Notes: generated by a model not told the origin, from the sequence alone. A DNA stretch of 64,000 nt from Candidatus Levyibacteriota bacterium (GCA_018062815.1 JAGORM010000001.1:16301-80300); one strand, 5' to 3'. Shown: positions 1 to 15,820, counted from the stretch's first letter. Translations and numbers: made by a program.

Positions 1-1641
1 AGTTTCCACCTCTGAGGAATTTTGTTTCAGTAGGATTTGCATGGAAGAATTAGATAAAATTGCTTTACCGTAGTCTGAGGATAAAAAGTCTTCTATGTCC
101 TGGGTAAGAGTGGTAACACCCAAATAGTATTTTCTTGCGCGCTTAGCAATTCCCTGTAAAAATGCCGCGGAGTCAGGGTTTTTCATAAGGTACCATGCCT
201 CATCAACTATTAAAATACGTTTTTTAAGTTTAGTCCTAACCCTATTCCAGATAAAATCCAAAATCACCTGCATTGCTACAGGTCGAAGAGACTCCTCCAG
301 TTGTTTTATGGAAAAAACAGTAAGCTGATTTTTGACATCATAGTTAGTTTGTGAATTTAATAATCCGGCAAACCCTCCTTTAATGTATTTTTCCAGTCTA
401 AAAGCTAAATCCTTTGCGTCTGCTTCTTCCATGTTCAGAAGAGTTTTGTATAGATCCTCAAGAATGGGAGGCTCATTTCCAAAAGTTGAAGGGTCAGGAA
501 TTATACCTTTTTGCTTATAGCATAAAACCAGTGCTCGGTCTAAAATTGCCTCCTGGGTTGGGGAAAATTCGCCAAGCATAATCTTAAGAAGTGAGTGAAG
601 GGCTAAAAATTTTATTCCAAGCTGCGCTTCGGTTCTGTCGTCTGAAAGAAGGGCGAACGGATTAATTTTTACTTCAGAGTCCTTTGAGAAGGAGATATAT
701 TCTCCGTCAAGGCCGTGACAGAGGGCTTTATACTCATCCTCAGGGTCTATGATAAGAATTTCTGTGTCAAACATCATTTGGCGCAATACTTCAAGCTTTA
801 CTAAAAACGATTTTCCAGAGCCTGATTTTCCAAAAACAACCGAATTTGCATTTTCAAAGGAGAAGCGGTCCACAATGATAAGTGAGTTATTAAGCGTGTT
901 TACACCATAAAAAATGCCGTTTGGCTGAGAGATTTCGTAGGATGTGAACGGAAACGTTGAGGCAACGGATGTGGTGTCCATATTCCGTGTGATGAACAAT
1001 TTGTCCTCACCTAAAGGAAGTGTTGTTTTAAAACCATCTTCCATTTGAAGCGTTGCTGGTTTTATAACAAGTAAATTTGACGCAAGTAGGGAGGTCAGTT
1101 CATTAGTTTTTTTATCAAGCTCATCAACAGTTTTTGCGGAAAGCGTTACATAAAGCCCGAATTGAAAAAACCGCTCAAGTCCGCGCGCCAACTCCTCACG
1201 TAGAGCAATCGCGTCTTCAAGAGATGCTCTGACCTTGGGGTCAGGTTCTATGCCGTTTTTCATGTCTGATTCAATTGTTGCCTCCATTTCTCCGATTTTG
1301 CGTTTCAAATTGGAGAGAATATCCTTACTTTCGACAGGATATATAAACATAGATACATTCATGGTTTCCTTATAGTCTATGAGTATGGAGAGCCAGTTTG
1401 GGGAAACTTCACGCGGATAATCAATTACAATAAACGTTCTATAGAATGCGTCTCCTACCCTGATGTACTTAAAATCTACTTCAACTGATGAAGGAGCAAG
1501 AAGGTCTATCAGAGACACAGATCCGCTCTTTAATCTTTCAACTCCTCGTGCGACTTGTGGTTGTGTGCTTTCTGGTGTTCCATTAGCCGTTTGTGCAGTT
1601 GTATTTTTTTCTGTTTGTTTTTTCTTTCCAATTCCTAACAT
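1..1641 (-). CDS. virB4: VirB4/TrbE/CagE-family type IV secretion ATPase; C-terminus runs off the window start
   Basis: Manual minus-strand translation from ATG at 1641: MLGIGKKKQTEK... Walker A (FGKSGSGKSF) and Walker B (LIVDEAWYLM). The N-terminal region has the VirB4/TraC N-domain pattern. No stop codon before coordinate 1. Confidence 0.8.
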   Translation of the reverse strand, partial: MLGIGKKKQTEKNTTAQTANGTPESTQPQVARGVERLKSGSVSLIDLLAPSSVEVDFKYIRVGDAFYRTFIVIDYPREVSPNWLSILIDYKETMNVSMFIYPVESKDILSNLKRKIGEMEATIESDMKNGIEPDPKVRASLEDAIALREELARGLERFFQFGLYVTLSAKTVDELDKKTNELTSLLASNLLVIKPATLQMEDGFKTTLPLGEDKLFITRNMDTTSVASTFPFTSYEISQPNGIFYGVNTLNNSLIIVDRFSFENANSVVFGKSGSGKSFLVKLEVLRQMMFDTEILIIDPEDEYKALCHGLDGEYISFSKDSEVKINPFALLSDDRTEAQLGIKFLALHSLLKIMLGEFSPTQEAILDRALVLCYKQKGIIPDPSTFGNEPPILEDLYKTLLNMEEADAKDLAFRLEKYIKGGFAGLLNSQTNYDVKNQLTVFSIKQLEESLRPVAMQVILDFIWNRVRTKLKKRILIVDEAWYLMKNPDSAAFLQGIAKRARKYYLGVTTLTQDIEDFLSSDYGKAILSNSSMQILLKQNSSEVET

Positions 1642-1678
1642 ACTATAAAATAACCCCTTTCATTATGTGTAATAAGCG

Positions 1679-2293
1679 CTACACTATAATATTTTTAACG
1701 TCATTTGTTGAGAAGTCTACGTTCATAGTCGTTTGGTTGAAAAGTTCAAAAAATACCCGTCCTAATTCCTCTGCCTTAATGACTCTGCTTGAAAGACCGA
1801 TTCGTTCAATCTGCGTCATAACATTTGTTCTTTTAGTTGCAATCGCCTCTGTAATCCGCATTTCATGTGTCTTTTTGTTGCCTCCTGATGTTGGCCCTAG
1901 CTCTAATGCGTTAAATGGGATTACCACATATGTTTTTTTATCCAATAGTCCGTCTTCTTTTATAAGCTCTTGAATGAAGTCTTTGTATAGTCTTAAGTGT
2001 TCAGCTACTCGTGCGTTTTGAGTAATTGTAATTTTGTGATCAAGGGAGGCAACATATGATGAAAGGTCAATCCTTTTGGAGACAATTACAATTTGGATCG
2101 CAAAAGAAAGAGAATTTAAAAGAGACATGTATCCATATATGCGCGCGTTTTGTTCGTCTTGCGAGAGTAGAAAAAAATTGACGGATGATACTTCCAGAAT
2201 AGAGCATGCATTTTTTCCTTTCAGCAATACGGTATCATCCCGAATGTCTTCGATCTCAATAAATGATTGCGTTGTAGACTTAATTTTAGCCAT
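1679..2293 (-). CDS. Hypothetical T4SS-associated protein; the 204-aa sequence resembles a VirB4 N-terminal domain
   Basis: ORF track; lies between the VirB3-like gene and virB4. The segment IRDDTVLLKGKNACSILEVSSVNFFLLSQDEQ matches the VirB4/TrbE N-domain pattern. No ATPase motifs. Confidence 0.4.
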   Translation of the reverse strand: MAKIKSTTQSFIEIEDIRDDTVLLKGKNACSILEVSSVNFFLLSQDEQNARIYGYMSLLNSLSFAIQIVIVSKRIDLSSYVASLDHKITITQNARVAEHLRLYKDFIQELIKEDGLLDKKTYVVIPFNALELGPTSGGNKKTHEMRITEAIATKRTNVMTQIERIGLSSRVIKAEELGRVFFELFNQTTMNVDFSTNDVKNIIV

Positions 2294-2302
2294 GGACAGG
2301 TT

Positions 2303-3418
2303 TTATAGAGTATTATGTGCTACTCCAAATAATTCACGTCTTAATTTTTCGCGTTGATCAACGGATATTACCTGAATAGGTTGAGCCACTGATCCGTCAA
2401 GCGTTATTCTTTTGTCTTGAAAGTCCTGTTTTTTTAACGTGTCTTCCATGTGTAGCGTATACATTCCGTTTGGAAGCGGAGTTGCTGCTCTAAAAAAACC
2501 ATTTGCATCAGTTCGGAACGTTCTAAGTGGCACATTTTGAGTATCAAGCACTTCCACAATGATATGAGGTAGCGGTTTTCCTCTTGGGTCAAGTATTTTG
2601 CCTTGTAAAATGTTTGCTATGTCTATGCCCCCCACAGACACTTGGGGAGGTGCTACTTGAGTTGTAGGTGGCGCTTCATCTGCTGCAGTAGTAGGGGTAG
2701 TAGTTTGAGCAGTTTTAACAGCGGGTGCTGTTTGGTTTGTAGTTTCCTGTACTGGAGGAATCGGAGTTTCCGCATGAGGGGTAGATAGTTTCTGTGTTTC
2801 AACTTCTGACACATGCGTAGCGTATGCAGGAGAAGTAGTTATCGCAGAAGCTTTTTTTTCATCTGCAATAACTTTGGTTGTAGCGCCGCCTTGTTGCATA
2901 GAACCATCTTTAAAAAGGTTATTTACGTTTTCTACCTGAGATTTTTCATCAGCATCAGGCTTAAAGTAAGAGCTTGCAAGTTGATTAAAAAGCTTTGCTT
3001 TTTGTACAGCTGCGCTGTCCTCAGAGGTTGAGCTGGTAATGTTAGTGTGAGAAGGAGGAATAAATGTAAAGTATGGCATTTGCGTTCCGTGTTTTTTATA
3101 AATATACTGATTTTCCGCGGGAATTGCCTTAAAAAAGTTGAAAAGCATTTTGTCCATAGGCCTTCCGTCAATAGGTACAAATGCCAGGCAAAGACCAACA
3201 CCCCCTGAGAGAAACATAAATGGAAGCTTTAATAAAAATGGAATTGGAAAGAAATAGAACAAAAGTGCAAAAACCCCGCCACCTAAAAGATATAGAAACT
3301 GCTTTACCGTAACAGATCCTATAAGCCTAAATTTAAATCCTGTAACATCCTGCGGGATTGGGTGATTTTCCATATAGTACAGGGTATAACGTGAAACATA
3401 TGCTTTCAAGATTATCAA
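2303..3418 (-). CDS. VirB3/PrgI-like two-TM membrane protein with a Pro/Thr-rich linker and a C-terminal carboxypeptidase-regulatory-like beta-sandwich domain
   Basis: N-terminal FRLIGSVTVKQFLYLLGGGVFALLFYFFPIP hairpin, typical of PrgI/VirB3 proteins encoded just upstream of virB4. The C-terminus GKILDPRGKPL..TDANGFFRA..LPNGMYTL is CarboxypepD_reg-like. Confidence 0.45.
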   Translation of the reverse strand: MIILKAYVSRYTLYYMENHPIPQDVTGFKFRLIGSVTVKQFLYLLGGGVFALLFYFFPIPFLLKLPFMFLSGGVGLCLAFVPIDGRPMDKMLFNFFKAIPAENQYIYKKHGTQMPYFTFIPPSHTNITSSTSEDSAAVQKAKLFNQLASSYFKPDADEKSQVENVNNLFKDGSMQQGGATTKVIADEKKASAITTSPAYATHVSEVETQKLSTPHAETPIPPVQETTNQTAPAVKTAQTTTPTTAADEAPPTTQVAPPQVSVGGIDIANILQGKILDPRGKPLPHIIVEVLDTQNVPLRTFRTDANGFFRAATPLPNGMYTLHMEDTLKKQDFQDKRITLDGSVAQPIQVISVDQREKLRRELFGVAHNTL

Positions 3419-3621: not shown

Positions 3622-3966
3622 ATGGAATTTACACAGGAAAAGAAAAAAAAGGTTGAGAAAATGATTGTTGATTCAATGATAGATGCGGTAGGCGCAGGAT
3701 TTGTCCAGGAAGACGCTCTCCCCAATATTTCTGAGTTTGTATTAAGCAGGATGGATACTATAAAAAATGAAGAAGAATTAGTCGCATTCCTTATTGAGCT
3801 TTCTCAGAAATGGTCATTTTTCTTGCCGATTGAACGCTTCATTGAAGGGGAAGCAAAGGAAGTAGAAGATAGAAAATCAGTAGATAAGGCAGAAAATCTT
3901 ATAAAAGGTGGACAATTAGATCAAGCGCTGCAGGTTTTAAAAGCTGCAGAGAAAGGAGGACTTTAA
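3622..3966 (+). CDS. Hypothetical acidic protein (114 aa)
   Basis: ORF track; contiguous with the downstream gene (5-nt gap). No recognisable motif. Confidence 0.4.
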   Translation: MEFTQEKKKKVEKMIVDSMIDAVGAGFVQEDALPNISEFVLSRMDTIKNEEELVAFLIELSQKWSFFLPIERFIEGEAKEVEDRKSVDKAENLIKGGQLDQALQVLKAAEKGGL

Positions 3967-3970
3967 GTTT

Positions 3971-5917
3971 ATGTCAGCACCAACATCACCAGACATGGGG
4001 AAAATAAAACAAGAGGCTATTGTACGAGCAATAACCGGTAAAATTGAATTGACTGATGCTGAGAAGGGGGAAAAACAGCATGAAATGGCGGCAAAGATTG
4101 CCGAGAAAAGCTTGAGAAAAAAACGCGGAGATGAGGGTAATGATCACGCTTTTATGGAAGGGTTAAGAAATCAAAAAAAAGGAGTACAAGAAATCCCCAC
4201 AGGAGATGAGGTAAAAAAGGTAATTGAAGGTGCACATATTAGTGCTGAGGATAAAAACATTGCAGATCAAACAGAGGAAGTACTGCGGGCAGTTTTCTCA
4301 GGGGATAAGGCATACTTAGAGACTCAGGCAGCAAGAACAAGCGATTTTTTAATTGCTCCAATTCGGGAAATGATGGGAAGGGACCCTGTCTTTAAAGAGA
4401 TAGCAGATGGTATTGACAAGAGCCCTGCTTCTCTAAACCAATGGGTTGATTTTGTCACGGAGCAGTTAGATTCAGGTCGCAGACCAGGAGATAACTTGTT
4501 TATGGATGATCTTCAGGCAAAATACAAAACGTTTATGGAGAAGGACAGAGAAGATTCCGTAAGTACTACGGTGATTCAAAGAAAACTTGAAAGGCAGTCA
4601 GCAAAGGAAAAGGCATTAAACGATCAGTTTGAATCAAAATTAAAAGAGGCTGGTGCGAATAGGGATAGGAAAAATGAATTTGCAAGTACAGAAAAGGGTG
4701 CAGGAAAAGATTTAATAGATTTAACACAGAAAGCTGATGATGAGAAGAATGATAGAGAGCGGATAGAGCGTGAGCTTGGCGCACTAAACTCAGATAGGGC
4801 AAGAGCACAAGAAGACGCTCTTAGCCAGAATAACCTCATAAGAAAAGACGCTGAGGTAAAGTTGCGTGAATTAAGAGATAGTATCTCTAAAAAGGAGATA
4901 GAGCTGACTCCATTTAAACAAACAATTGATAAAAAAAATGCCTTGATTTCTGAAAGAGACGGATTGGATTCTGCATATACAAAAATTTTAGACGATCAAG
5001 ATAGTCTTGAAACTCAAATTGAAGTTGCGGGTAAAGAAAAAACAAAGATAGAGGCGCAGCTTGCAAATGCCGGAGGCGCAAAAGATAAAGAAAACTTTAT
5101 AAAGGAGTTTAAGGCTATTATGGGAGACGCGTTTAGAGACACAATGCTTGCCAGATTTGACGCGGAGCAGGCAGGCGTCAGTGAATCCCTGAAGGAGTTT
5201 ATAGAAGCAGCGCGCGATCCGCACGTTAAGGCAGCATTAGAACAACTTTGGGACAGTCATAATCGTTGGAAGGATTGGGATTCGGCTTGGAAGACCCGGC
5301 TAAAGATTCCTTATGGTCGTAAAGAGGAGCCTAAGATGCAAAAAGATCTTATGAGGGAAGATGTAGATATTTTACTCAAAGAGGGTCCTGAAGGTTTTAT
5401 GAGAAGATTTCTTCATCAAAAGATGGATCCTGATACAAAAAACGCAAGTCATCCTTACGGAATGGTGTACTCAAAAGAAAAGATAGATGAACTGATTTCA
5501 GATAAAGACTTTATGGATGCCGTACAGCCAAAGGCTGCAGGATTATTGGTTCGTCAGGCTGTTAAGGCAGGTGTGCTGTCTGAGCGTCAAATGGCAGAGT
5601 TGAGAGATACAGAATGGGGAATGAGCGCAATTGAAAGCGCACTCATGATGGACAAAACAGCTGTAGAGAGCGGTAGGGCACACCAGGCAATAGACTACAT
5701 AAAGAAACACCCAAAGTTTGCATGGTGGATGCTTTTCACTATCTTGTGGCCGCCGGCAGGGTTATTTGTTGCGGGAGCATATGCAGGTAAGGAAGTTGTC
5801 TCAGGGATGTTTTCAGGCAAAAATAAAGATCACGGAGGTCATGATAAAGCGCCTGTAAATGTTGAGCCGCCATCTTCACCTCAGGCAGTACAATTGCACC
5901 CCGCGCCTGCTCATTAG
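3971..5917 (+). CDS. Large coiled-coil, tail-anchored protein (C-terminal TM WWMLFTILWPPAGLFVAGAYAG)
   Basis: 648-aa ORF rich in K/E/D/R heptad-like segments with a single C-terminal hydrophobic helix. Only short ORFs, inferred spurious, lie on the opposite strand. Confidence 0.55.
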   Translation: MSAPTSPDMGKIKQEAIVRAITGKIELTDAEKGEKQHEMAAKIAEKSLRKKRGDEGNDHAFMEGLRNQKKGVQEIPTGDEVKKVIEGAHISAEDKNIADQTEEVLRAVFSGDKAYLETQAARTSDFLIAPIREMMGRDPVFKEIADGIDKSPASLNQWVDFVTEQLDSGRRPGDNLFMDDLQAKYKTFMEKDREDSVSTTVIQRKLERQSAKEKALNDQFESKLKEAGANRDRKNEFASTEKGAGKDLIDLTQKADDEKNDRERIERELGALNSDRARAQEDALSQNNLIRKDAEVKLRELRDSISKKEIELTPFKQTIDKKNALISERDGLDSAYTKILDDQDSLETQIEVAGKEKTKIEAQLANAGGAKDKENFIKEFKAIMGDAFRDTMLARFDAEQAGVSESLKEFIEAARDPHVKAALEQLWDSHNRWKDWDSAWKTRLKIPYGRKEEPKMQKDLMREDVDILLKEGPEGFMRRFLHQKMDPDTKNASHPYGMVYSKEKIDELISDKDFMDAVQPKAAGLLVRQAVKAGVLSERQMAELRDTEWGMSAIESALMMDKTAVESGRAHQAIDYIKKHPKFAWWMLFTILWPPAGLFVAGAYAGKEVVSGMFSGKNKDHGGHDKAPVNVEPPSSPQAVQLHPAPAH

Positions 5918-5960: not shown

Positions 5961-6308
5961 TTATTGTGTTTTAGGAGGACTCAACAATTGATTTAACCCT
6001 ACTCCCGTGAACTGAGACAAGAGATTTATCATGACAAATGACAGCATGATTATCACTAGCCCAATAATTGCGTAAGTGAGTCTTTTTCTTGCGTTGTCCA
6101 CTTTTTCTTTATCTCCTGAAGATGTTACATATTGGTAGCCTGAGTAAATGATAAGAAATACGGCAACCACGCCGGATAAGATGAGCGCTGCATTAATTAC
6201 ATTTTGTAGTACAACCCACACGCAAGATAAGGTAGCCACCCCTGTTCCGTTTGGGTCGCCTTCAATTTTTTTGACACATGATCCCCAATCTTTTGTAAAT
6301 AAATCCAT
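5961..6308 (-). CDS. VirB2/TrbC-like T4SS pilin (hairpin two-TM pilin)
   Basis: Motif YSGYQYVTSSGDKEKVDNARKRLTYAIIGLVIIMLSFVMIN: pilin-loop signature S-x-GD-x-x-K-x-x-x-A(R/K) between two hydrophobic helices. Confidence 0.65.
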   Translation of the reverse strand: MDLFTKDWGSCVKKIEGDPNGTGVATLSCVWVVLQNVINAALILSGVVAVFLIIYSGYQYVTSSGDKEKVDNARKRLTYAIIGLVIIMLSFVMINLLSQFTGVGLNQLLSPPKTQ

Positions 6309-6369
6309 ATGCTTTTAGCATAAAACAAATATGAGAGATAATTCAAGGGGAAAGGCAAGTAGTGCAGTA

Positions 6370-6834
6370 CTATTGATTTACCGAGGGACTAGGGCCATTT
6401 CGAAGTGAAGGTATTTCAAATCCAGTAGTAAGGTAATTACCTGTAAAGATGTAAAGGACAGCGTTTATAATAACGTAGGCTAGTATAACTATAATAAGTC
6501 CCACAATAGCCGCAACTATAGTAGAGCGTGCAGTATCAATTTTCCCTTTATCTCCTCCTGAAAGAATCCACCTGACGCCGCCATACAAAAGGAAAATAAG
6601 GGACAGGACAATTCCAATAACTATAATAGCGTTTATAATAAAAGCAATCAGTTCATTTGGTGTCACATCAATATTTCCGATTGATTTAGGTGACTTAATT
6701 ATTATAGGTTCAATAGTATCAGCAAAGACTGGAGTTGCTGTAACTGACATAAGAAGCGTACCAAAAGAAACTGACGCGGTATTTATAACTTTTTGCAGAC
6801 TCATATAATTATTAGAACATGTTTTTTTTTGCAT
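6370..6834 (-). CDS. VirB2/TrbC-like T4SS pilin paralog with signal peptide and short N-terminal extension
   Basis: LLYGGVRWILSGGDKGKIDTARSTIVAAIVGLIIVILAYVIIN, the same hairpin-pilin signature. Signal-peptide-like N-terminus. Confidence 0.6.
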   Translation of the reverse strand: MQKKTCSNNYMSLQKVINTASVSFGTLLMSVTATPVFADTIEPIIIKSPKSIGNIDVTPNELIAFIINAIIVIGIVLSLIFLLYGGVRWILSGGDKGKIDTARSTIVAAIVGLIIVILAYVIINAVLYIFTGNYLTTGFEIPSLRNGPSPSVNQ

Positions 6835-6848
6835 GTCAAGAAGCGTTA

Positions 6849-7175
6849 TTATTTTCCTAACTCTTGCAGTACCTGCGCACCCAGAATAAAGCCTATAATT
6901 CTTACAATAGTAAATGACAGAAGGATTATGATAAGCCCTACAATTGAATACGTGATAGTACGCCTAGCGCGGTCAATTTTAGTTTTGTCTCCTTGAGACG
7001 TAATCCACAAAACACCTGCATACAGCATAAAGATGAGAGAGGCAATAATTCCTATTACAACTATCATTCCTAATCCAAAACTAATAATATCAGACGGAGC
7101 ACTTGCTCCTGACGGGATGTTTTCAGGAGTTTGTACCTCTCCATACCCTGGTAGTGTTAAAGATAAGTATTTCAT
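6849..7175 (-). CDS. VirB2/TrbC-like T4SS pilin paralog
   Basis: MLYAGVLWITSQGDKTKIDRARRTITYSIVGLIIILLSFTIV signature. Confidence 0.65.
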   Translation of the reverse strand: MKYLSLTLPGYGEVQTPENIPSGASAPSDIISFGLGMIVVIGIIASLIFMLYAGVLWITSQGDKTKIDRARRTITYSIVGLIIILLSFTIVRIIGFILGAQVLQELGK

Positions 7176-7176
7176 A

Positions 7177-8802
7177 TTATTGAAGGCCAGGTATTCGTAA
7201 AATGTTTACACCAATAAACTCAAGTATTGCAATTGAGAGAATAATAAATATTAATCCTGTGATTGCAGCGGTTATTTGCTCACGTGCTTGTCCCACTTTT
7301 TCTTTATTTCCCGCGGATGTCATAATGGTGTATCCTGCGCGGATAAAGAAGAGAACAGCAGCTACTCCTCCGATAGACAGCACTATGGTAAATATGTCGC
7401 GTACAAAAAATTGAGGCTCAGTGCTGATTTTTATCCCAAGAGCAGTTGGAATTTTTTTACAATACCCAGTTGCTTTATCAATATCAACAGGATCGCAAAG
7501 TGGTCGGGGAGGGAACCATGGAATTGTGGCTCCCAACTCCTTGCCATATGGGTCTTTTATGATTGTACCTATTGAGCCTTCTCCTCCTCCACGGGCTATA
7601 GTAAATGTTATAAAATACAGAGTGAAATCGTTAGGCTCACAGGTGATACCATTTTTGTTTTTCTTTAAATCTCTCCCGTCTTTAATTTTTAATATATATT
7701 TCCCCTCAGTAAGTGTTGCAATAACATTTCCGTCAGAGTCTTTTGATTCAGGGCTTAAAAAAATGGTGGCTTTTCCTGTGCTTGCTTTTGGGTCTGCGCC
7801 TTTTTCAACAAGAAGGCATTTAGGCTCACTTCTATAGTCATTATCCATTCCCTCAATCTGCATCCAGTAGTCATTATATATGTCCTCATTTTTCCCCGAT
7901 TTAATGTTTCTTCCTTTCAGCTCTACTAAAAAATCCCAACCTTTTTTCATGTTGTCGGTATTAAGAAGTTTATTTTTCTCATCTCCCTTAGGGAGTACAA
8001 CTTCAGGGTAAAAATGACTGACATAAAAGTCTGCGTGCGCTTTTACGTCATTCGGATTGACGCTCTTACTATCTTTCCCCTGTGACAGATAAACATGATA
8101 AGTTTTTCCTGCATGGAACCAATCTCCATCTACCAGGTTAGTGCTTTCTGTGCAGTCTTCTTTTAGAGTTTTTTCTCCGTCCCCGCACAGCTTTGGTAGT
8201 ATGATAGTCCCGTTTGAAACTGTTGCTTCATTCCAATCGTCATCGCTGCAGTCCTCCGGCTTACTTTTAAGGCAATAAAAATATTTGGAATTTTTTGTAG
8301 GATTAGAAATATTTTTAAAATACACTGAAACAAAAGGAACGCTTTCGTCTATATATGGCTGGTTATTTTTCTTATCTTTTTCAAGTCCACGTGTAGCACC
8401 TAACCCTTTGCAAATGTAATAAGATTCAGAAGTTATACAGTCTTCAAGTGTGGGGTTATTGATTTCATCCAAAAATCTGTCTTCGTTAGTGTTCCCTTGT
8501 TCATCAGTGCAGGAGGTATTTGTAAAAAGATTTGCATCATCAATAGTTGCCGGAAATTTGCCGCCTAAAGTTCCCAGGTATGTGCAAATCGTGTTGCACG
8601 CTGTAGGGTTATCACCGGTAGCATATACGGTTGAGAGATCTTTCATTGAAACCAGAGTTCCCTTTACGGTTTTTTGTACGTTTTTTTGACCGGTGCAGAC
8701 ATCACTATAGTCACGTCCGGTAAATACAACACCTGCCGCGAATGTAGGGGGAACGTAGTACAGACAGATAAGAAGGAAGAAAAAAAGGATAAGTTTCTTC
8801 AT
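7177..8802 (-). CDS. Secreted Cys-rich ~450-aa extracellular domain fused to a C-terminal VirB2/TrbC-like pilin module; candidate tip adhesin or minor pilin
   Basis: Signal peptide MKKLILFFFLLICLYYVPPTFAAG and many Cys residues. C-terminus IRAGYTIMTSAGNKEKVGQAREQITAAITGLIFIILSIAIL carries the pilin signature. Confidence 0.6.
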   Translation of the reverse strand: MKKLILFFFLLICLYYVPPTFAAGVVFTGRDYSDVCTGQKNVQKTVKGTLVSMKDLSTVYATGDNPTACNTICTYLGTLGGKFPATIDDANLFTNTSCTDEQGNTNEDRFLDEINNPTLEDCITSESYYICKGLGATRGLEKDKKNNQPYIDESVPFVSVYFKNISNPTKNSKYFYCLKSKPEDCSDDDWNEATVSNGTIILPKLCGDGEKTLKEDCTESTNLVDGDWFHAGKTYHVYLSQGKDSKSVNPNDVKAHADFYVSHFYPEVVLPKGDEKNKLLNTDNMKKGWDFLVELKGRNIKSGKNEDIYNDYWMQIEGMDNDYRSEPKCLLVEKGADPKASTGKATIFLSPESKDSDGNVIATLTEGKYILKIKDGRDLKKNKNGITCEPNDFTLYFITFTIARGGGEGSIGTIIKDPYGKELGATIPWFPPRPLCDPVDIDKATGYCKKIPTALGIKISTEPQFFVRDIFTIVLSIGGVAAVLFFIRAGYTIMTSAGNKEKVGQAREQITAAITGLIFIILSIAILEFIGVNILRIPGLQ

Positions 8803-8843
8803 ACCTTAATCATAGGGGTTTGCCCTTTCTAAAGTCAAGAAAT

Positions 8844-10175
8844 TTATGGAACAAAGCGGTATCCTCGGCCCTTTATAGTTATAAGGTGTGTCGGGTTATT
8901 CGGGTCTTCTTCAATCTTTCGTCTGACTCTGTATATAATTTGGTCTAGTGCTTGGTCAGTTACACCTTCCCGTGTTTTTTCATCTGACCATACGGATCCA
9001 ATTATTTCCTCTTTTGTGCATACCTTATCAGTGTTTTGAATTAAAAATCTCAGCAGCTTAAATTCTGATGGAGAGAGAACATCAGTTAGTGATTCGTTTC
9101 CGTCTTTTATCTCTTGAGTGTTTGCGTCAAGCGTTATTTTTTCAGTTGCAGGATTTGGGAAGTGAGACAAATTTTTTAAAAACAAAGGTATTTGAATCTC
9201 CCCATTTTGGATTAGATAAGAGCGTTGTAGAAAGGAATCCGCGGAAGCTCCAGCAGGGGATTTAAGAAGTATTTTTTGCTCTATCGGTATTAGTGAGTTC
9301 CAGATTTCAATCAATGCTCCTTGAATTGCTGCTTTTGACAGCAAAAAAGCTGATAAGTCTTCATATTTTTCTTCCTCCCCAAGTACTGTTTCAAGTGCAA
9401 TTCTGGACAATTTTCCGTGTCCTGCGGTGAGTTTTAGGATTTCTTTTTTTGTATTTTCTGACGCTTTTCTTCCGCTGGTTTTTTCAAGATAGGAAAATCT
9501 AAAGTCATTAGTTTCAGGATCTGAAATAGGTAGAAATACCTGGTTTCCTACAACAAATTCATAAAAGTCAGAAAAAATAGAGGGTTCCAGTAGATCTTCC
9601 AGGGGGCGGGTAGTTGAAAAAACCGCTGAAAATCTGTATTTTGCCCTGTTTCTTAATACCCGTAAATTAGTAAAGAAATGTTCATTTATGCAAGGAAAGT
9701 ATGTGTCAAATCTGTCAAAAAGTAAGACTATAGTTAGCTCCCGTTCTATGGATAAGTAGTCAATTGCGCGTTTTAATGCCTGGAAAAGGATTAATTCATC
9801 CTGAAAAGAAACCGCTTCCTTGAGAATTGTGTTTATAGCATCTTGATCTTTGTCCATTTTCCGCTCTGACAGGGAATAGGAAAGGGAGATTAGGATAAAT
9901 TTCACCAATTCATAAAAACTTCTGCCCTTTATTTCTGACAAGTCCATGTACACAAAGTGGTACCACTTATAGTTTTCCCCTAAGTGTAAGGTTCTGAGAG
10001 CGTTGTTATACGCTAAAAGCCTTAGAGTGTTTGACCGTCCTACGCCGGGTAGGCCTAATACCTGTGCTGAGTTCCCTTTTTTAATATATGAAAGAATTTT
10101 ATCTATCTCCGGTTTCCTTGCGGACGGAGGGTATAAAGACTCAAAATGCACAGGTTCAGAGGTTGGAGTAGCCAT
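8844..10175 (-). CDS. Transcriptional regulator: N-terminal AAA/STAND-type NTPase fused to a C-terminal OmpR/PhoB-type winged helix
   Basis: Walker A GLPGVGRSNT and Walker B-like IVLLFDRFD. C-terminus SPSEFKLLRFLIQNTDKVCTKEEIIGSVWSD...ITIKGRGYRFVP is the trans_reg_C signature. Confidence 0.6.
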   Translation of the reverse strand: MATPTSEPVHFESLYPPSARKPEIDKILSYIKKGNSAQVLGLPGVGRSNTLRLLAYNNALRTLHLGENYKWYHFVYMDLSEIKGRSFYELVKFILISLSYSLSERKMDKDQDAINTILKEAVSFQDELILFQALKRAIDYLSIERELTIVLLFDRFDTYFPCINEHFFTNLRVLRNRAKYRFSAVFSTTRPLEDLLEPSIFSDFYEFVVGNQVFLPISDPETNDFRFSYLEKTSGRKASENTKKEILKLTAGHGKLSRIALETVLGEEEKYEDLSAFLLSKAAIQGALIEIWNSLIPIEQKILLKSPAGASADSFLQRSYLIQNGEIQIPLFLKNLSHFPNPATEKITLDANTQEIKDGNESLTDVLSPSEFKLLRFLIQNTDKVCTKEEIIGSVWSDEKTREGVTDQALDQIIYRVRRKIEEDPNNPTHLITIKGRGYRFVP

Positions 10176-10248
10176 ATGTTAGTTTATTGTAAGCTACCTA
10201 TAAGGATAATATCAAGTTTGCAGGCGTATTTTCTCATATACTTGCCTC

Positions 10249-13200
10249 ATGAATGAAAGATTGTTGCCACAAGAATTGACAGCGGGAAGGGTATCTTCTA
10301 CACTTAATGTAAGGAGTACTATGCCAGAACCACAGAAAGAAGAATTCAATATTCCCAAAAAAATTGATAGACAGCCACTTGTTGCGGGAAGTACTTCTCC
10401 TCGTCCAGAAACTATGCAGGAGCTTATGCGTGGGCAGGCAGAACGTGAGGCAGCCCGTGCCATAGTGGAGGAGGCCAGGAAACAAGGAAAATCATTGTCT
10501 GAGGATCAAAAAAAGATTGTTTTTGAATCTGGTTTTAAACCAACTATTTATGGAGGTGCTGATGTTCCTGAGAATGATGACTATAATCCAGACAATGGAG
10601 AAGGTGAGGAAAATCAGAGGCCAGAGGTTGCAAGAAGGGGTTTTGAATTGAGACCTCCACGAGGTGTAGCTGCCGACAAACAACTTCTTGATGAAATAGA
10701 AAAATTTAATAATGTCAGTGAATTAGGTGTTGATTTTGATGATCTTAAACGCGAGGCTGAAAAAATTATGGATCTTCAGTCCTCAGACCCAAACAACCCA
10801 ATTACGTCAGAGCAAAAACAGGACCTGATAAGACAGCTTTCAAAAAAAGGACAAGAAATAGCGGCGGCAAGAATGAATAACCCGGATAGATTTGGGTTTT
10901 ATCTTGAAACGCAGGATTTGCGTGAATTAGATAGTGACCCTATGTCATGGTTAGATTCTCAATTCGGTCAAATATACGACTTGTCTAAGGCGGGAAGTGA
11001 GTTGGATTCTCCTATTTTGCAACGTGTACAGACAGAGGTGGGAGAGGCATCCGCTTATCTTCAGAAAAAATTTGGAAAATTCAGAAAAGAAGGAATAGAA
11101 AATGCAGCAGACATTGAGCGCGCAAATAGAGAGAGTAAGTTGCTACTAGAGTTTAATGAAACGTTTGCTATCAGGTTAAACCTTATTTTTGCAAGAACGG
11201 CAATTGACCAAAGGGGTATGGAGCAAATACAGGGAGCGGTAGGAAGGCTAAGGACATTAGGATTTGCAGGAGCGCAAGCTTTTGATAACGGGGCAGTTGG
11301 CGCTATGTATAACCGTATGGAAGCGATGCTTGGAAACTTGCGACTAGCTGAGGGAGGGCGTGAGCATCATCTTAACCCTGCATCCTTAAACAAGCTGCAG
11401 GATAAAACTATAGATGAGCAGATAGAGCTTGCAAAAAAGGGAGTAGGCATATTTGCAGGTAAATATAAAGAGATCTTATCAGATCCAAAAAAGCAGAATA
11501 ATGCTGATGATGTTTTAAAGCGGGAGATTACCAGATCAGTTAGAACGGCTTATGACATTTTAGTTGTATCTCAGAGAGTTGCAATTGTTGCTGCGAGGGG
11601 TAATTTTAGAGGAGACAGACAGCAGTACTTTTCTGATAACGGAGGAGCATTTGCAGTATTCAATTTAGAGCAAATGACAATTAACAAGTGGGATTTATTA
11701 AATCATGAAGAGCAGGAGTTCTTTGATTTTCTCAAGCTTGACATGGCAATTAATAATAAAAAGGGGATAGATGTCTCAAAGCTAACACGTGAACAATTGT
11801 TGGATTTAGGGGGGAGATTGTTTAGGGATTTATATGTGGTTCCTGATTTTTATTCATCCTCATGGAGAATGAATGGAATGAGAGACCAATTGGGGCGTGT
11901 AATTCAATATAAAGCGGAGAACGATAAAATGATTGAAAAGTTTATCGAAAGTTCTAATTTTACTCCGGCTGATGAAAATCTCAGAAGTTTGCAGGAGCAA
12001 ATGAGGACACAGATCCAGAATTACATGCAGGTATGGGATGAACTGAACCCTGTGCAGGGAAGGGTACAGGGAGACAGGGAAATAGCACAAAGACAAATTT
12101 CCCGTCAGATGTTTGAGAAGACCTTAACGCGTGAGCAAAGAGAGTTATGCCTTAATACACTTACACAGGATGAGAAGGCGAATGTTTTAAACACTACAAT
12201 AAAAAAGGCTGGTACACAATTAGGGAAAGAGATTGGAGATTTTGCCTTATTTGTACAGCTAAAACAGAGCTTGGGGCATTTAGGGCACAATGCTGGTTCA
12301 GCGCAGGAAATAAAGGATTATAGAGCTGGGGTTTGGGGAAAGATTCAAAAATTTAAAACAGAAGATATTATGCAGTTGATAAGAGGCCGGGCACGACCGG
12401 ATATATATACGGAAGACTACAATAATCTACGTGAGTTGTATACTCTTTTTGAGAGAAACGATTCAGAATTGGGGATATTAACAAATGAGCAAAAAGAATT
12501 GCAAAAAACGGGGGGGATAGAGGCATTTCATACATATGATAAATTTATTGAGAAATATGGGTCTGTAATACAGGCAATACGTCAAGATGCGATGCGAAAC
12601 GGTTTAACCGGTCCAGAGCAGGTAGATATGGCTAACTTAAGCCCTCGACATGTGGAGATGGTGAACAGAATGTTAGGAGGGAATGGGGCAGCGGTTACTC
12701 TCCAAAATATTTATAAGGACATGAATGGGTTTATAAATCGTCATAATATTATTAATGATTTTGTTACAAGTCAAAAGTATATAGATCTTTACAATAGAGT
12801 AATAAACGTAGAGGATGTAATGCTCGACACTCTTGAATCAATACCTGAAAATGCAGGATTCCAGAAGTTGTCAGAGTATTTTACTGCAGAATCAGGGGCA
12901 GATGCTTTGAAACGCAATTTTAATGATATAGGAAATGCAGTTAATGCAGGAAACGCATTCATTAAATTTGTTACAACTGAAGATAAGGAGGGCAGATTTA
13001 AAGAATCCAAAGCTATGAAAAGCGCTGTGGAGGCATATAATGGTCGTACAAATGGAGCTGAAGTTATGCGATTTACTTACGGGACAGAATTGTTATACGC
13101 AACTCAATATTATTGGATTAACACCTTGCGTTTAGGCGCACTGCCATTCAGAAAGCCAAGCTCCATGAAGCAGGAGCATTATGGTATTGGTGCAAAGTCT

Positions 13201-13434
13201 TTGACACGACAAGATGTACGAGGGGATTTGGATCATCATAAAACAGAATTTGTAGGGCGCGGATCCGATGCTGATAAGTGGTTTCTTCAACTGGAGGAGT
13301 TGACGGGAACAGATATGAAGTCCACAATGAAAAGAAACGCGCTAACGCTTTTGATATACGCGTTTTTAGGGATTGTTATAGGAGCTCCGGTAGGTGCAGC
13401 CTCCGCAGCATTAGCAGGAGCACAGAAAGGATAA
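10249..13434 (+). CDS. Giant (1061 aa) mostly helical hypothetical protein with a C-terminal TM anchor
   Basis: ORF track; divergent from the regulator gene. Disordered acidic N-terminus, no enzymatic motif. C-terminal LTLLIYAFLGIVIGAPVGAASAALAGA helix. Confidence 0.5.
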   Translation: MNERLLPQELTAGRVSSTLNVRSTMPEPQKEEFNIPKKIDRQPLVAGSTSPRPETMQELMRGQAEREAARAIVEEARKQGKSLSEDQKKIVFESGFKPTIYGGADVPENDDYNPDNGEGEENQRPEVARRGFELRPPRGVAADKQLLDEIEKFNNVSELGVDFDDLKREAEKIMDLQSSDPNNPITSEQKQDLIRQLSKKGQEIAAARMNNPDRFGFYLETQDLRELDSDPMSWLDSQFGQIYDLSKAGSELDSPILQRVQTEVGEASAYLQKKFGKFRKEGIENAADIERANRESKLLLEFNETFAIRLNLIFARTAIDQRGMEQIQGAVGRLRTLGFAGAQAFDNGAVGAMYNRMEAMLGNLRLAEGGREHHLNPASLNKLQDKTIDEQIELAKKGVGIFAGKYKEILSDPKKQNNADDVLKREITRSVRTAYDILVVSQRVAIVAARGNFRGDRQQYFSDNGGAFAVFNLEQMTINKWDLLNHEEQEFFDFLKLDMAINNKKGIDVSKLTREQLLDLGGRLFRDLYVVPDFYSSSWRMNGMRDQLGRVIQYKAENDKMIEKFIESSNFTPADENLRSLQEQMRTQIQNYMQVWDELNPVQGRVQGDREIAQRQISRQMFEKTLTREQRELCLNTLTQDEKANVLNTTIKKAGTQLGKEIGDFALFVQLKQSLGHLGHNAGSAQEIKDYRAGVWGKIQKFKTEDIMQLIRGRARPDIYTEDYNNLRELYTLFERNDSELGILTNEQKELQKTGGIEAFHTYDKFIEKYGSVIQAIRQDAMRNGLTGPEQVDMANLSPRHVEMVNRMLGGNGAAVTLQNIYKDMNGFINRHNIINDFVTSQKYIDLYNRVINVEDVMLDTLESIPENAGFQKLSEYFTAESGADALKRNFNDIGNAVNAGNAFIKFVTTEDKEGRFKESKAMKSAVEAYNGRTNGAEVMRFTYGTELLYATQYYWINTLRLGALPFRKPSSMKQEHYGIGAKSLTRQDVRGDLDHHKTEFVGRGSDADKWFLQLEELTGTDMKSTMKRNALTLLIYAFLGIVIGAPVGAASAALAGAQKG

Positions 13435-13446
13435 AAAGTAAAAATA

Positions 13447-15162
13447 TTATCTTCCAAACATTCCCCTAAGGAATTTTTTGCCTGCTTCTGCTGCGTGGAG
13501 TTGACCATCTTTGCCATACTCTGCTTTTGCTCCAAATGCCATTTCCTTAACCCCACTAATTCCTTTTCCTCCTACTGCCTGAGAAGCACCAAATGATGTT
13601 CTAATATCTTTCAACCCAAAGTCCATAGCGCCAACTGCTTTTCTGGTACGGTCTAATATGCTTGGCATGGATATAATAAAGCCAAAACCTATAAATGCAG
13701 CCAGGGCAGGGCTTCCACCGACAGCGTCTCCTATAAGTGGAGGAGAAAATAGTCCGCCCTGATTCCCCACATTACTCATAATAGTTTTTCCAAGTAGTAT
13801 TACCCCAAATGCCATAGGAAAGACTGATAAATGGCCCATAAGATGCCTTATCCAAGTAGAAAATCCTAATTTACTTCCCGGAAATATTCCGGCAGTTATC
13901 CAAAGCGGGGCAACTATTACGTCAATTAACACATAAATAAAGGACTTAATAAGCGTAAACCATACCCTAAATAATGAGAAGATAATAGCAATAAGGATAA
14001 TTAAAAATGTAACAATTGTAAAAAGACTGATAATTGCCGCCCTGAAGAACGATTCCACAAAATTACATCCACCCCCCGCAAACATTCCCCCTATTGGAGT
14101 ATCTCTTAACCATCCTCCCAATCCTGGTACCCATCCCAATGCCCCTAACCCTACTGTTGCTCCTACCTTACCCAGGTCTACCACCCCGCACCCAATAGAG
14201 CTAACGGCGTTAAAGGGGGTGAAGAAGACCTGGAAAAAAGATGAAATGGTTGACTCTAAAAAGTCTATGGACATATTTCCTAAAACCTTACTAACCCCAA
14301 ATGAAGTTTGTCCTGCAATCCCGATTATCCCTGGGATATGAGTAATACCAATTACGTTTGGAGTATCTATGCTAAAAGATTTGTTTACAACGCCAAATAC
14401 GGTGGATGAGGTATTAACATTTGTAGGTATAAGACTATTAAAAGTTAAGATAACAAGATAAAGGGATACATACATAAGGTCTATAAGAAGTCCTGCAATT
14501 GCGTATGAAAAAGTGACTAAAATAAGAGCTACTATTAGTTTTGGAATTTGGTTTTGAATACTCATAACAGTACGCGCATCAATTTTTACTCTAAACATGA
14601 TTGCAAGTCCAACAATGGTAAATGCCAAGACAAACGCGAGATAAGAAATATCTCTAAATCGTGCCCAAATTCCAAGAAGAGGGCGCAATCTATCAAATCC
14701 TACCCCGGTTTCCTCTGGATTATTTTGTGCATAAGCGCTGCGTGCTACCCCAAAGTTTCCAGCCATGTATGTTGCATAATCTACCCCTGAAACAGGCAGC
14801 ATAAATGTTTCTCCTATAAGTCTTCCCATAATTTGCGTTGCTCCACCTCCTTGGGTTTCATATCCTATTTGCCCACTATTTACATCTACTCCCAAACATG
14901 TTTTTTTTGGGTCTAGGGGGTTATATCCTGAAAGTATGCAGACAGTGCTTGATAAGGTGTTGATAATGGCTGATTGAGTAAGAGTATTAAGATTTTGAGG
15001 AGCTTGAGAGTTAACGTTTCCGTATAATATTTGACTGTTCGTAGTTGGGGCAGTGGTAGTTGTGGGCGTAGTAATTGTCGGTGCTTGAGCAAGAATGGGT
15101 TTTATGCTGCTTATTACAAGAAAGAAGACAAGAACGTATAGAATATGTTTTAGTTTATTCAT
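13447..15162 (-). CDS. VirB6/TrbL-like polytopic membrane protein (start moved to MNKLKHILYV)
   Basis: Signal peptide followed by a Thr/Pro-rich segment and at least 8 predicted TM helices. Lies in the T4SS-like locus, convergent with the 1061-aa gene. Call rests on architecture only. Confidence 0.45.
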   Translation of the reverse strand: MNKLKHILYVLVFFLVISSIKPILAQAPTITTPTTTTAPTTNSQILYGNVNSQAPQNLNTLTQSAIINTLSSTVCILSGYNPLDPKKTCLGVDVNSGQIGYETQGGGATQIMGRLIGETFMLPVSGVDYATYMAGNFGVARSAYAQNNPEETGVGFDRLRPLLGIWARFRDISYLAFVLAFTIVGLAIMFRVKIDARTVMSIQNQIPKLIVALILVTFSYAIAGLLIDLMYVSLYLVILTFNSLIPTNVNTSSTVFGVVNKSFSIDTPNVIGITHIPGIIGIAGQTSFGVSKVLGNMSIDFLESTISSFFQVFFTPFNAVSSIGCGVVDLGKVGATVGLGALGWVPGLGGWLRDTPIGGMFAGGGCNFVESFFRAAIISLFTIVTFLIILIAIIFSLFRVWFTLIKSFIYVLIDVIVAPLWITAGIFPGSKLGFSTWIRHLMGHLSVFPMAFGVILLGKTIMSNVGNQGGLFSPPLIGDAVGGSPALAAFIGFGFIISMPSILDRTRKAVGAMDFGLKDIRTSFGASQAVGGKGISGVKEMAFGAKAEYGKDGQLHAAEAGKKFLRGMFGR

Positions 15163-15259
15163 AGGGCAGGTAGTTTTAGTATGGCTCAGAATGCAATAAA
15201 AAGTCAAGGAACATATAAGTAGGGGTTTTAATTGACAACTATATATAAAACAGGGTATC

Positions 15260-15820
15260 ATGCGACTAGGTATGAAATTAAAAATTGCCATCCTGTTTCT
15301 TATAAGCTTTGTTTTTATATTTGTGAAAACAGCCGCAGCGCAGGTAATAGAACTTTCCCCAACCATTCCTGTATCCACCCCTACCGCAGTTGTTCAAACT
15401 GTAGACTACCAGCTTCCATATCCAGGTCTTCTCCCAGATAACCCTTTATATATATTTAAGGCGGCACGTGATAAGGTCGTAGAATTTCTTATTTCAGACC
15501 CGGTTAAAAAAGCAGAATTTTATTTACTCTCATCAGATAAAAGAGTTAACACAGGTTATTATCTTATTATAAAAGGGAAACATGACATGGGGATGTTGTA
15601 TATTTCAAAAAGTAATAGTTATTTAAGTCTTGCAAATTCTGCGACTGCACAAAGCGGAGAAAATGGAAAGAGTATCCGTGACAGATTAGACTTATCTGTT
15701 AAAAAACACATAGAGTTACTAAACTCTTTAACTAAAAGAATTGATAAAAAAAATAGCACAAAACTTGCAAATGAGATTAAGAGACTAGAAAAATTTCAAA
15801 CACTTATTAATAAGAAGTAG
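15260..15820 (+). CDS. Secreted hypothetical protein (signal peptide, K-rich C-terminus)
   Basis: ORF track; MKLKIAILFLISFVFIFVKTAAAQ signal-like N-terminus. Confidence 0.4.
   Translation: MRLGMKLKIAILFLISFVFIFVKTAAAQVIELSPTIPVSTPTAVVQTVDYQLPYPGLLPDNPLYIFKAARDKVVEFLISDPVKKAEFYLLSSDKRVNTGYYLIIKGKHDMGMLYISKSNSYLSLANSATAQSGENGKSIRDRLDLSVKKHIELLNSLTKRIDKKNSTKLANEIKRLEKFQTLINKK

Follow-up and report, generated by a model that had tools for sequence, protein, structure and literature searches.

What is a large, cysteine-rich domain doing on a pilin? The question is raised by a 64-kb stretch of a Candidatus Levyibacteriota genome (GCA_018062815.1, JAGORM010000001.1:16301-80300), called the window below, in which four adjacent open reading frames (ORFs) spanning positions 5961-8802, all on the minus strand, encode predicted pilins of a type IV secretion system (T4SS). 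Three of the proteins are small. The fourth, of 541 amino acids (aa), carries a long region in front of its pilin-like hairpin. Read along that strand, the genes are referred to as A, B, C and D:

7177..8802, minus strand, A-type modular pilin gene, 541 aa; ORF with a match to Pfam family PF18895 at residues 467-529 and an AlphaFold2 (AF2) model
6849..7175, minus strand, B-type pilin gene, 108 aa; ORF scoring 26.5 bits with PF18895, for which the cut-off is 26.6 bits
6370..6834, minus strand, C-type pilin gene, 154 aa as the longest ORF; PF18895 match
5961..6308, minus strand, D-type pilin gene, 115 aa; the best Pfam match of the four, 49.7 bits

With moderate confidence, we favor the reading that A is a modular pilin, of the minor or tip kind, which presents a domain for binding to the host. 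It would be a functional analogue of VirB5 within the four-pilin cassette of a chromosomal T4SS of the monoderm type.

Four consecutive genes with the hairpin of T4SS pilins

Alignment and hydropathy reveal the loop S-x-G-[DN]-K-x-K-[VI]-x-x-A-R in all four proteins, with the S, G, both K, A and R residues invariant. Two hydrophobic helices flank this loop in every module, and in A they make up the last ~80 residues. The AF2 model of D is a two-helix hairpin (H29-62/H67-101) with a mean predicted local distance difference test (pLDDT) score of 79. Profile searches with PF18895 (T4SS_pilin) match the 115-aa protein (E 4e-13, 49.7 bits), residues 467-529 of the 541-aa protein (E 1.6e-8, 34.9 bits), and the 154-aa protein (E 2.9e-7, 30.9 bits), and fall 0.1 bit short of the gathering cut-off for the 108-aa protein (E 6.7e-6, 26.5 bits). 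The claim of four consecutive VirB2/TrbC-like pilin genes, made in a first-pass annotation of the DNA, is thus borne out by the ORFs, by their shared loop and by the profile matches. Beyond these four, no ORF of the window matches a pilin hidden Markov model.

All 55 relatives and paralogues collected match PF18895, and 27 of the 55 also match PF04956 (TrbC/VirB2) at E <= 0.1, with a best E of 5.1e-7; within the window, the 115-aa protein alone matches PF04956, at E 0.026 and 15.2 bits, under the cut-off of 27.9 bits. Scores with NF045849 (Mbov_0395, cut-off 40 bits) are sub-threshold for D (37.1 bits), B (28.3 bits) and A (25.3 bits), with E values of 1.9e-9 to 9e-6, and the C type has no match to it. 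The four proteins have the two helices and the short charged loop of the VirB2/TrbC superfamily, and A exceeds the description 'small' through its fused ectodomain. When the A hairpin alone served as query in a word-indexed protein search, a 72-aa fragment was the single match. B, which scores lowest with PF18895, begins 2 nt past the A stop codon, lacks an N-terminal signal peptide and is 40-49% identical to the C type; its orthologues are flagged, weakly, by PF18895, and wherever a related locus is not truncated by a contig end, one occupies the corresponding position. Judged by profile and loop, the four genes are T4SS (VirB2/TrbC-superfamily) pilin modules. Their resemblance is not due to chance, because the same four-gene set recurs in nine other genome loci and in dozens of metagenome loci.

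Might the hairpins nonetheless be generic two-helix anchors in unrelated genes, resembling pilins through hydrophobic composition? The pilins and their relatives do show weak cross-matches to Cyt_bd_oxida_II and MatE, JGI calls two D-type homologues (P0050 and P0057) 'cytochrome bd-type quinol oxidase subunit 2', and no structural match to a solved pilin was obtained. The JGI label is probably a mis-annotation arising from hydrophobic composition; NCBI names another homologue 'pilin'. However, the E values with PF18895 reach 4e-13, the loop motif is polar and invariant and so cannot be explained by hydrophobic composition, VirB4 and PrgI are linked to the pilins in every sufficiently long locus, and about half of the relatives match TrbC/VirB2. 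These observations effectively refute the generic-anchor explanation, to which we give almost no credence. The C-terminus of the 541-aa protein, earlier proposed to be a genuine pilin module and not a generic anchor, is indeed the most conserved part of that protein (76.5% mean identity, compared with 39% for the ectodomain core). A type IV pilin or a pseudopilin of a type II secretion system was also rejected, as the N-terminus of A, MKKLILFFFLLICLYYVPPTFAAG, is an ordinary Sec-type signal and PF18895 is the sole pilin-related Pfam match.

Modular build of the A-type protein

A is 100% identical to an NCBI hypothetical protein from a Candidatus Levybacteria metagenome-assembled genome (MAG), which puts the window genome among the Microgenomates of the Patescibacteria. 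The first-pass annotation gave it a signal peptide and a cysteine-rich extracellular region N-terminal to the hairpin. Both features are found: the signal is of the Sec type, and 14 of the 15 cysteines lie within the ~440 residues between signal and hairpin. The signal cleavage site was read by eye with the -3/-1 rule and is a predicted one. The protein can be divided as follows, with mean pairwise identities for its family:

8737..8802, minus strand, predicted Sec signal peptide of A, aa 1-22, MKKLILFFFLLICLYYVPPTFA, cut before AG; hydrophobic segment at 1-28
8428..8736, minus strand, hypervariable Cys-rich distal region of A, aa 23-125; 19% mean pairwise identity
7543..8427, minus strand, conserved ectodomain core of A, aa 126-420, two tandem beta-sandwiches resembling immunoglobulin (Ig) and fibronectin type III (FN3) domains; 39% mean identity
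7417..7542, minus strand, neck of A, aa 421-462, Cys-loop C436...C448 followed by I-P-T-A-L-G-I-K-I-S-T-E-P; 47.7% mean identity
7180..7416, minus strand, hairpin of A, aa 463-541, helix 463-495, loop SAGNKEKVGQAR, helix 500-529, tail ILRIPGLQ; 76.5% mean identity

Conservation therefore falls in a gradient from the hairpin (76.5%) through the neck (47.7%) and core (39%) to the tip (19%). Substitution rates, computed by the pairwise Nei-Gojobori method by gene and by region, give the same picture. Nonsynonymous divergence (dN) is ~0.02 in the hairpin, with a ratio to synonymous divergence (dN/dS) of 0.03-0.05, versus a dN of 0.17-0.40 in the ectodomain. The distal region has the highest dN (0.36-0.40) and is modelled by AF2 with a pLDDT below 50. 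Across the ectodomain family, the sequence N-terminal to the core, signal included, ranges from 1 to 192 residues. As a whole, A is among the two fastest-changing proteins of the locus, with 68-71% identity to its closest relatives versus 81-99% for most others; the second is p648, a neighboring protein described below.

Eight cysteines are conserved across the ectodomain family (177, 185, 206, 217, 329, 388, 436 and 448), which is consistent with four disulfides. The core holds six of them, and the remaining two, C436 and C448, are in the neck. Both beta-sandwiches are confidently modelled by AF2, and they resemble the tandem FN3 modules of receptor and adhesion proteins. No Pfam family besides PF18895 matches the 541-aa protein at E <= 1. 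Homology to VirB5/TraC was considered and rejected, as there is no corresponding Pfam match and the ectodomain is a beta-sandwich.

Lineage-specific ectodomains on a constant neck and hairpin

When residues 25-460 of A were searched alone, only 39 relatives were found among 1.84 billion cluster representatives. All but one of the 47 ectodomain-family members that were collected end in the pilin hairpin, the exception being a 173-aa fragment. In these collections, the ectodomain of the window protein is known solely as a pilin fusion.

A scan of metagenome DNA with an A-type hairpin profile identified 51 further loci, in which 24 complete A-type ORFs carry an extension of 38-553 residues before the hairpin; these lengths are upper bounds, as each ORF was started at its first possible start codon. 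One extra ORF of 67 aa is a hairpin-only fragment. Extensions of at least 100 residues fall into at least 13 groups unlinked by BLAST: one group of 12 that includes the window protein, one pair, and singletons, among them the protein of a Parcubacteria locus (L010). Three A-types of 128-150 aa have no ectodomain and consist essentially of signal peptide, neck and hairpin. Each of ten A-types with unrelated ectodomains matches PF18895. One of the unrelated ectodomains, in a 561-aa A-type (L043, 108-1793), contains an SdrD_B domain (38.7 bits, cut-off 29.7 bits). SdrD_B is the stalk repeat of the staphylococcal surface adhesins known as microbial surface components recognizing adhesive matrix molecules (MSCRAMMs).

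Just before the first helix, the motif C..C..[VI]xTA[ILF]GxIxTxPxxF is present in most inspected A-types, including the short ones, whatever the ectodomain. Because this motif is kept irrespective of the extension, the A type is best defined as a Cys-loop neck plus hairpin, with a variable domain between signal peptide and neck.

The conserved neck admits another explanation, in which the ectodomain is a pro-domain or a released protein that is cut off near T-A-L-G, leaving an ordinary small pilin. The neck motif is conserved beyond what a passive linker would require, A-types with little besides signal peptide, neck and hairpin do exist, and canonical T4SS pilins are made from longer precursors (the 'mature VirB2' of bioRxiv 10.64898/2025.12.18.695078). 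VirB2 and TraA lose long leaders. However, no protease or cleavage motif was identified, and the two cysteines flanking the neck look like a structural disulfide loop, not a processing site. Also, the ectodomain family never occurs without the hairpin in the 1.84 billion representatives, which points to a function that needs the physical link. We regard release of the ectodomain as improbable.

A less improbable alternative, although still a doubtful one, is that A remains membrane-resident without ever being extruded. In that case its hairpin would dock at the assembly platform and its stalk would span the wall as a collar, stator or gate, standing in for VirB8/VirB10-like or other wall-spanning parts. 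The very strong conservation of hairpin and neck would fit a fixed protein-protein interface, and tandem Ig-like domains are common spacers in envelope-spanning proteins. No VirB6 or VirB8 homologue was recognized at the window locus, and such homologues are reported to be scarce in Microgenomatia (PMC12102498). However, a structural collar is not expected to swap its ectodomain among at least 13 unrelated groups of 38-553 residues, or to lose it altogether. In addition, the most variable part of A is its distal tip, which suggests an outward partner rather than the bacterium's own wall. The tip-pilin reading accommodates both features: a hairpin that stays constant while variability rises toward the distal end, and ectodomains that differ altogether between lineages, would fit a part that contacts something outside the cell. 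For an epibiont, this would most plausibly be the surface of the host.

Four orthologous types in a fixed order

Are the four genes interchangeable copies, or do they differ in kind? A scan of one genome per species gave nine loci, which together with L001 make a set of ten (L001-L010). The order A-B-C-D is complete in seven of these (L001, L002, L004, L005 and L007-L009), in which the long gene is followed by genes of ~109, ~140-190 and ~115 aa. The contig of L006 ends after the C gene, and in L010, from a Parcubacteria MAG, all four types are present in rearranged order. L003, from a Levyibacteriota MAG, has the A-B-C-D order with a split A gene: over positions 9902-11161 and the following ~400 nt, the ectodomain is an ORF of 419 aa and the 72-aa hairpin (P0103) is annotated on its own, which reflects either a frameshift or pseudogene, or an assembly error. 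Among the 51 metagenome loci, 20 have the complete order, and most others are prefixes of it (A, AB, ABC) cut by contig ends. Departures occur in L028, L051, L052 and L054, in the form of ABCCCC, ABDBBB, an array of eight genes, and two cassettes on opposite strands of one contig. Lineage-specific pilin expansion thus does occur in other loci.

Seven of the MAGs (those of L002 and L004-L009) are labelled 'uncultured Gammaproteobacteria bacterium'. Their locus is syntenic with the Levybacteria locus and up to 70% identical to it, and the labels are almost certainly placeholders or errors.

Hairpins at the same position are similar across genomes, with mean identities of 72.8% for A, 58.5% for B, 72.6% for C and 69.7% for D, whereas paralogues inside one genome are 31-46% identical. 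For all four pilin genes, dN/dS is 0.04-0.18, which indicates purifying selection. Because same-position identity (58-73%) exceeds paralogue identity and selection is purifying, A-D are four ancient, specialized orthologous types, whose order is fixed; they are neither recent duplicates nor antigenically varying ones.

The first-pass annotation had instead suggested that the tandem paralogs reflect antigenic or functional diversification. In its full form, this explanation holds that the array consists of interchangeable, diversifying copies that vary antigenicity or host range, as proposed for the VirB2 paralogues of Bartonella and Anaplasma. The same idea has been raised for Patescibacteria arrays in a published survey (PMC12102498). 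The low identity among paralogues of one genome and the extra copies of one type in a few metagenome loci (ABCCCC, ABDBBB) would fit it. However, each position is an orthologous type with a fixed place in the order, every pilin has a low dN/dS, and no repeats or recombination cassettes were seen at the locus. Antigenic variation at the window locus is contradicted by the conserved orthologous types and the purifying dN/dS, and we consider it very improbable.

A proposed tip pilin, and points against it

The tip-pilin reading, a plausible one that the first-pass annotation had already suggested, can be put as a series of steps. A T4SS pilin at the membrane stage is a hairpin with its charged loop in the cytoplasm, and in solved T4SS pili that loop faces the lumen and lines it, with both termini outside (bioRxiv 10.64898/2025.12.18.695078). 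By analogy, A-D may each form a two-helix hairpin in the membrane, both ends outside and the basic loop S-x-G-D/N-K-x-K in the cytoplasm. A VirB4-driven machine would then extract the pilins into a tube with the loop lining its lumen, as in the solved pili. Given the outward position of both termini once the pilus is assembled, an N-terminal domain is topologically compatible with display on the filament surface. The neck and hairpin of A would carry a lineage-specific domain on this outward N-terminus, in the window protein a hypervariable Cys-rich tip on a stalk of two sandwiches. B, C and D would provide shaft and adaptor subunits.

A tightly packed five-start tube would have no room for an ectodomain of ~45 kDa on each of its subunits, so A is presumably a rare or minor subunit. 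In what seems the most likely arrangement, A would go in first, prime assembly, and end at the distal tip; T4SS pili grow from the base, so a priming subunit would reach the tip. There, A would contact the host cell in place of a VirB5 tip adhesin, which monoderm systems of this kind lack.

Several points weigh against this proposal. The tip location and the stoichiometry of A are purely what we infer, and a pilus of a Patescibacteria T4SS has never been seen, with reviews mentioning a 'potential' only (PMC12857230). No VirB6 homologue was recognized by sequence at the locus. The hairpin of A is modelled by AF2 with moderate pLDDT only (50-77). Searching the large domain, as the first-pass annotation advised, did reveal two Ig/FN3-like beta-sandwiches, and no lectin or known adhesin domain was found in the window protein; its fold is a generic one. 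The proposed likeness to the VirB2/TrbC/T4SS-pilin families was recovered by profiles and not by structure: when the D model was compared with the PDB by Foldseek, nothing significant was obtained (best E 1.3) and no T4SS pilin was among the matches. Such a comparison has low power for a bare helical hairpin, and its outcome does not count as a refutation. PDB sequence searches with the pilin profiles returned zero matches in one case and chance membrane proteins only (E >= 0.56) in another. Finally, the suggested search for diversifying selection found no positive selection: dN/dS exceeds 1 in no gene or region, with a maximum of 0.31, at dS near saturation, and this pairwise method, for which dS is often saturated, leaves room for site-specific positive selection.

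The proposal can be extended to hold that A-types are the first modular VirB2 pilins, that they form a host-recognition tip whose ectodomain exchange sets the host, and that B, C and D form distinct layers (shaft, base, adaptor) of a heteromeric pilus. We know of no heteromeric pilus of this kind in any conjugative system. This extension is tentative, and we would sooner expect that at least a part of it fails.

Gene structure of the cassette

A scan for promoters and terminators yielded fewer consensus sites than shuffled sequence, so the operon structure of the cassette is read from its tiny intergenic gaps alone (1, 14 and 61 nt in the order A-B-C-D). Promoter-like hexamers, TTGACT-18-TATGAT, are located at 8809-8838 on the minus strand, with 7 nt between their end and the A-gene ATG. 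A similar pair, TTGACA-17-TCTAAT, was read by eye at 6811-6839 on the minus strand, and ends 7 nt before an internal ATG of the C gene at 6804. These positions hint at leaderless transcripts and at a shorter start for C. The ATG at 6804 is the likely start of the C gene, and would give a protein of 144 aa with a signal peptide ending in ...TPVFA/DT. For the C orthologue of L001, the gene caller also picked a shorter form, of 139 aa. D has two family-conserved cysteines, C11 and C29, in its short N-terminal tail.

The surrounding T4SS locus

The cassette lies within a T4SS locus, whose other recognizable components in the window are as follows:

1..1659, minus strand, VirB4-like ATPase truncated at the window start, with 553 aa in open frame; P-loop_TraG E 4e-35, also AAA_10 and CagE_TrbE_VirB
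1679..2293, minus strand, TrsD/TraD-like (TraC-like) T4SS protein, 204 aa; NF041427 E 2.2e-6, below cut-off, and PF26593 (TraC-like) on the L001 orthologue
2303..3418, minus strand, PrgI/VirB3-like T4SS protein with a CarboxypepD_reg-like domain; PF12666 32.3 bits, syntenic in related loci
8844..10175, minus strand, AAA-ATPase with an OmpR-type winged-helix regulator domain, 443 aa, directly upstream of A; Trans_reg_C E 7.7e-20
28763-31195, minus strand, ATPase resembling type IV coupling proteins (T4CP-like), 20 kb off

The VirB4, TrsD-like and PrgI genes are within 6 kb of the cassette, and their linkage to the pilins is found in L001-L005, L008 and L009, which is every locus long enough to show it. 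The regulator is at the same position in L001-L006, L008 and L009, and is split into two ORFs in L006. A relative at 68% identity shares with the window, over ~20 kb, the order ribonucleotide reductase, NrdR, p186, polytopic protein, p1061, regulator, long pilin, three small pilins, p648, p114, PrgI, TrsD-like protein and VirB4. The T4SS is taken to be chromosomal because the other neighbors are housekeeping genes (NrdR, ribonucleotide reductase, SmpB, UvrD, MurJ and LepA). No VirB7, VirB9, VirB10 or relaxase turned up in Pfam scans of the window ORFs.

Several other proteins are encoded at the locus. A 643-aa polytopic membrane protein (13447-15378, minus strand) has at least six hydrophobic segments and is syntenic in L001-L006, L008 and L009, with 38-90% identity. 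It has no match in Pfam or in PDB sequence searches, and is a candidate VirB6-like platform. Between the cassette and PrgI, on the opposite strand, two conserved genes encode p648 (3971-5917, plus strand) and a 114-aa protein (3622-3966, plus strand). The 648-aa p648 is 35% charged, matches no family, and has a short hydrophobic stretch near its C-terminus; its identity is 68-71% with close relatives and falls to 25-35% with distant ones. Two possible roles for it are those of a T4SS substrate and of a factor that faces the host. The protein p1061 (10249-13434, plus strand), encoded divergently from the regulator, also matches no family, and its single hydrophobic segment, at the extreme C-terminus, is that of a tail-anchored protein. 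It is recognizable in 7 of the 10 related loci, including L001-L004, L006 and L009, and was not found in L005 and L008.

Next to the T4CP-like ATPase, a gene at 26884-28590 (minus strand) encodes a secreted or membrane-anchored SpoIID-domain protein, possibly a cell-wall-remodelling enzyme that might have a VirB1-like role. Proteins of 600, 225 and 173 aa encoded near the same ATPase have no family match. A 731-aa protein encoded at 35787-37982 (plus strand) has Kelch-type beta-propeller repeats and a Peptidase_C39-like domain.

Relation to known systems

Arrays of VirB2-like pilins are known in Patescibacteria. A 2018 study noted that Saccharibacteria have arrays of four to six small proteins related to VirB2 (bioRxiv 10.1101/258137), and a survey of 441 Patescibacteria arrays of 2-11 pilins found a mean within-array identity of 25%, suggested antigenic or host-range variation, and detected no adhesins in the loci (PMC12102498). 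In Southlakia epibionticum, so far the single species tested, the pilin array and the T4SS are essential for epibiotic growth (PMC10633639). Like the window array, those of Southlakia epibionticum ML1 and Nanosynbacter lyticus TM7x consist of divergent tandem paralogues that match PF18895, in a chromosomal monoderm-type T4SS with VirB4, PrgI and TrsD. Such arrays are reported to be especially common in Microgenomatia, the group to which the window genome belongs. They have been described as small, variable pilins, whereas the window array consists of four fixed types, one with a large lineage-specific ectodomain. The array itself is therefore already known. Neither a pilin fused to an ectodomain nor a fixed four-type cassette was found described in the literature searched, and the fixed cassette and the lineage-varying A ectodomain appear to be new in that respect.

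The canonical VirB2/TrbC/TraA pilins of diderms likewise have two hydrophobic helices and a short charged loop, and their genes are beside those of VirB3 and VirB4, although the window proteins score below the PF04956 cut-off. Canonical T4SS pilins are ~70-120 aa long, and to our knowledge they are never fused to a folded domain of ~440 aa. Mbov_0395 (NF045849), from an integrative and conjugative element of Mycoplasma, belongs to a monoderm conjugative system as well, and of the NCBIfam families its own is the one that the D, B and A hairpins match best. The Mbov_0395 family comprises ~80-aa proteins without ectodomains, and by score the window pilins are relatives, not members.

PrgF of the Gram-positive plasmid pCF10 is also a small two-helix protein of a monoderm T4SS, with a charged loop proposed to line the lumen. 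Its assembly is proposed to occur on a VirB6 pentamer; PrgF is the VirB2-like pilus protein of Gram-positive T4SSs, which were searched for proteins of 50-150 aa only and in which no VirB5-like tip was found (bioRxiv 10.64898/2025.12.18.695078). One pilus-forming protein per system, and no tip protein, was found in that work, whereas the window cassette has four types, one with an ectodomain.

VirB5/TraC tip adhesins have the role proposed here for A: they are minor components of the T4SS pilus, sit at its distal end and make contact with the target cell. This is an analogy only: VirB5 is a helical bundle and A combines beta-sandwiches with a pilin hairpin, with no relation in sequence or fold. 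The modular or minor type IV pilins, such as PilB and PilC of Streptococcus sanguinis, CofB of enterotoxigenic Escherichia coli and TcpB of Vibrio, fuse a polymerizable pilin to a functional domain and occur at low stoichiometry or at the tip. They belong to an unrelated superfamily, and have a prepilin-peptidase site and a C-terminal extra domain. A would follow the same design principle, with a Sec-type signal and the extra domain at the N-terminus.

A large part of bacterial diversity belongs to the Patescibacteria, whose cultivated members live attached to bacterial hosts. A is a concrete candidate for the missing host-contact part of the Patescibacteria T4SS, and the fixed A-B-C-D set is suggestive of a heteromeric filament, not of redundant copies. 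The neck and hairpin signature offers a simple route to candidate host-recognition domains in metagenomes. If the extended proposal is true, exchange of ectodomains on a constant neck and hairpin would set the host cell to which an epibiont can attach or on which it can feed.

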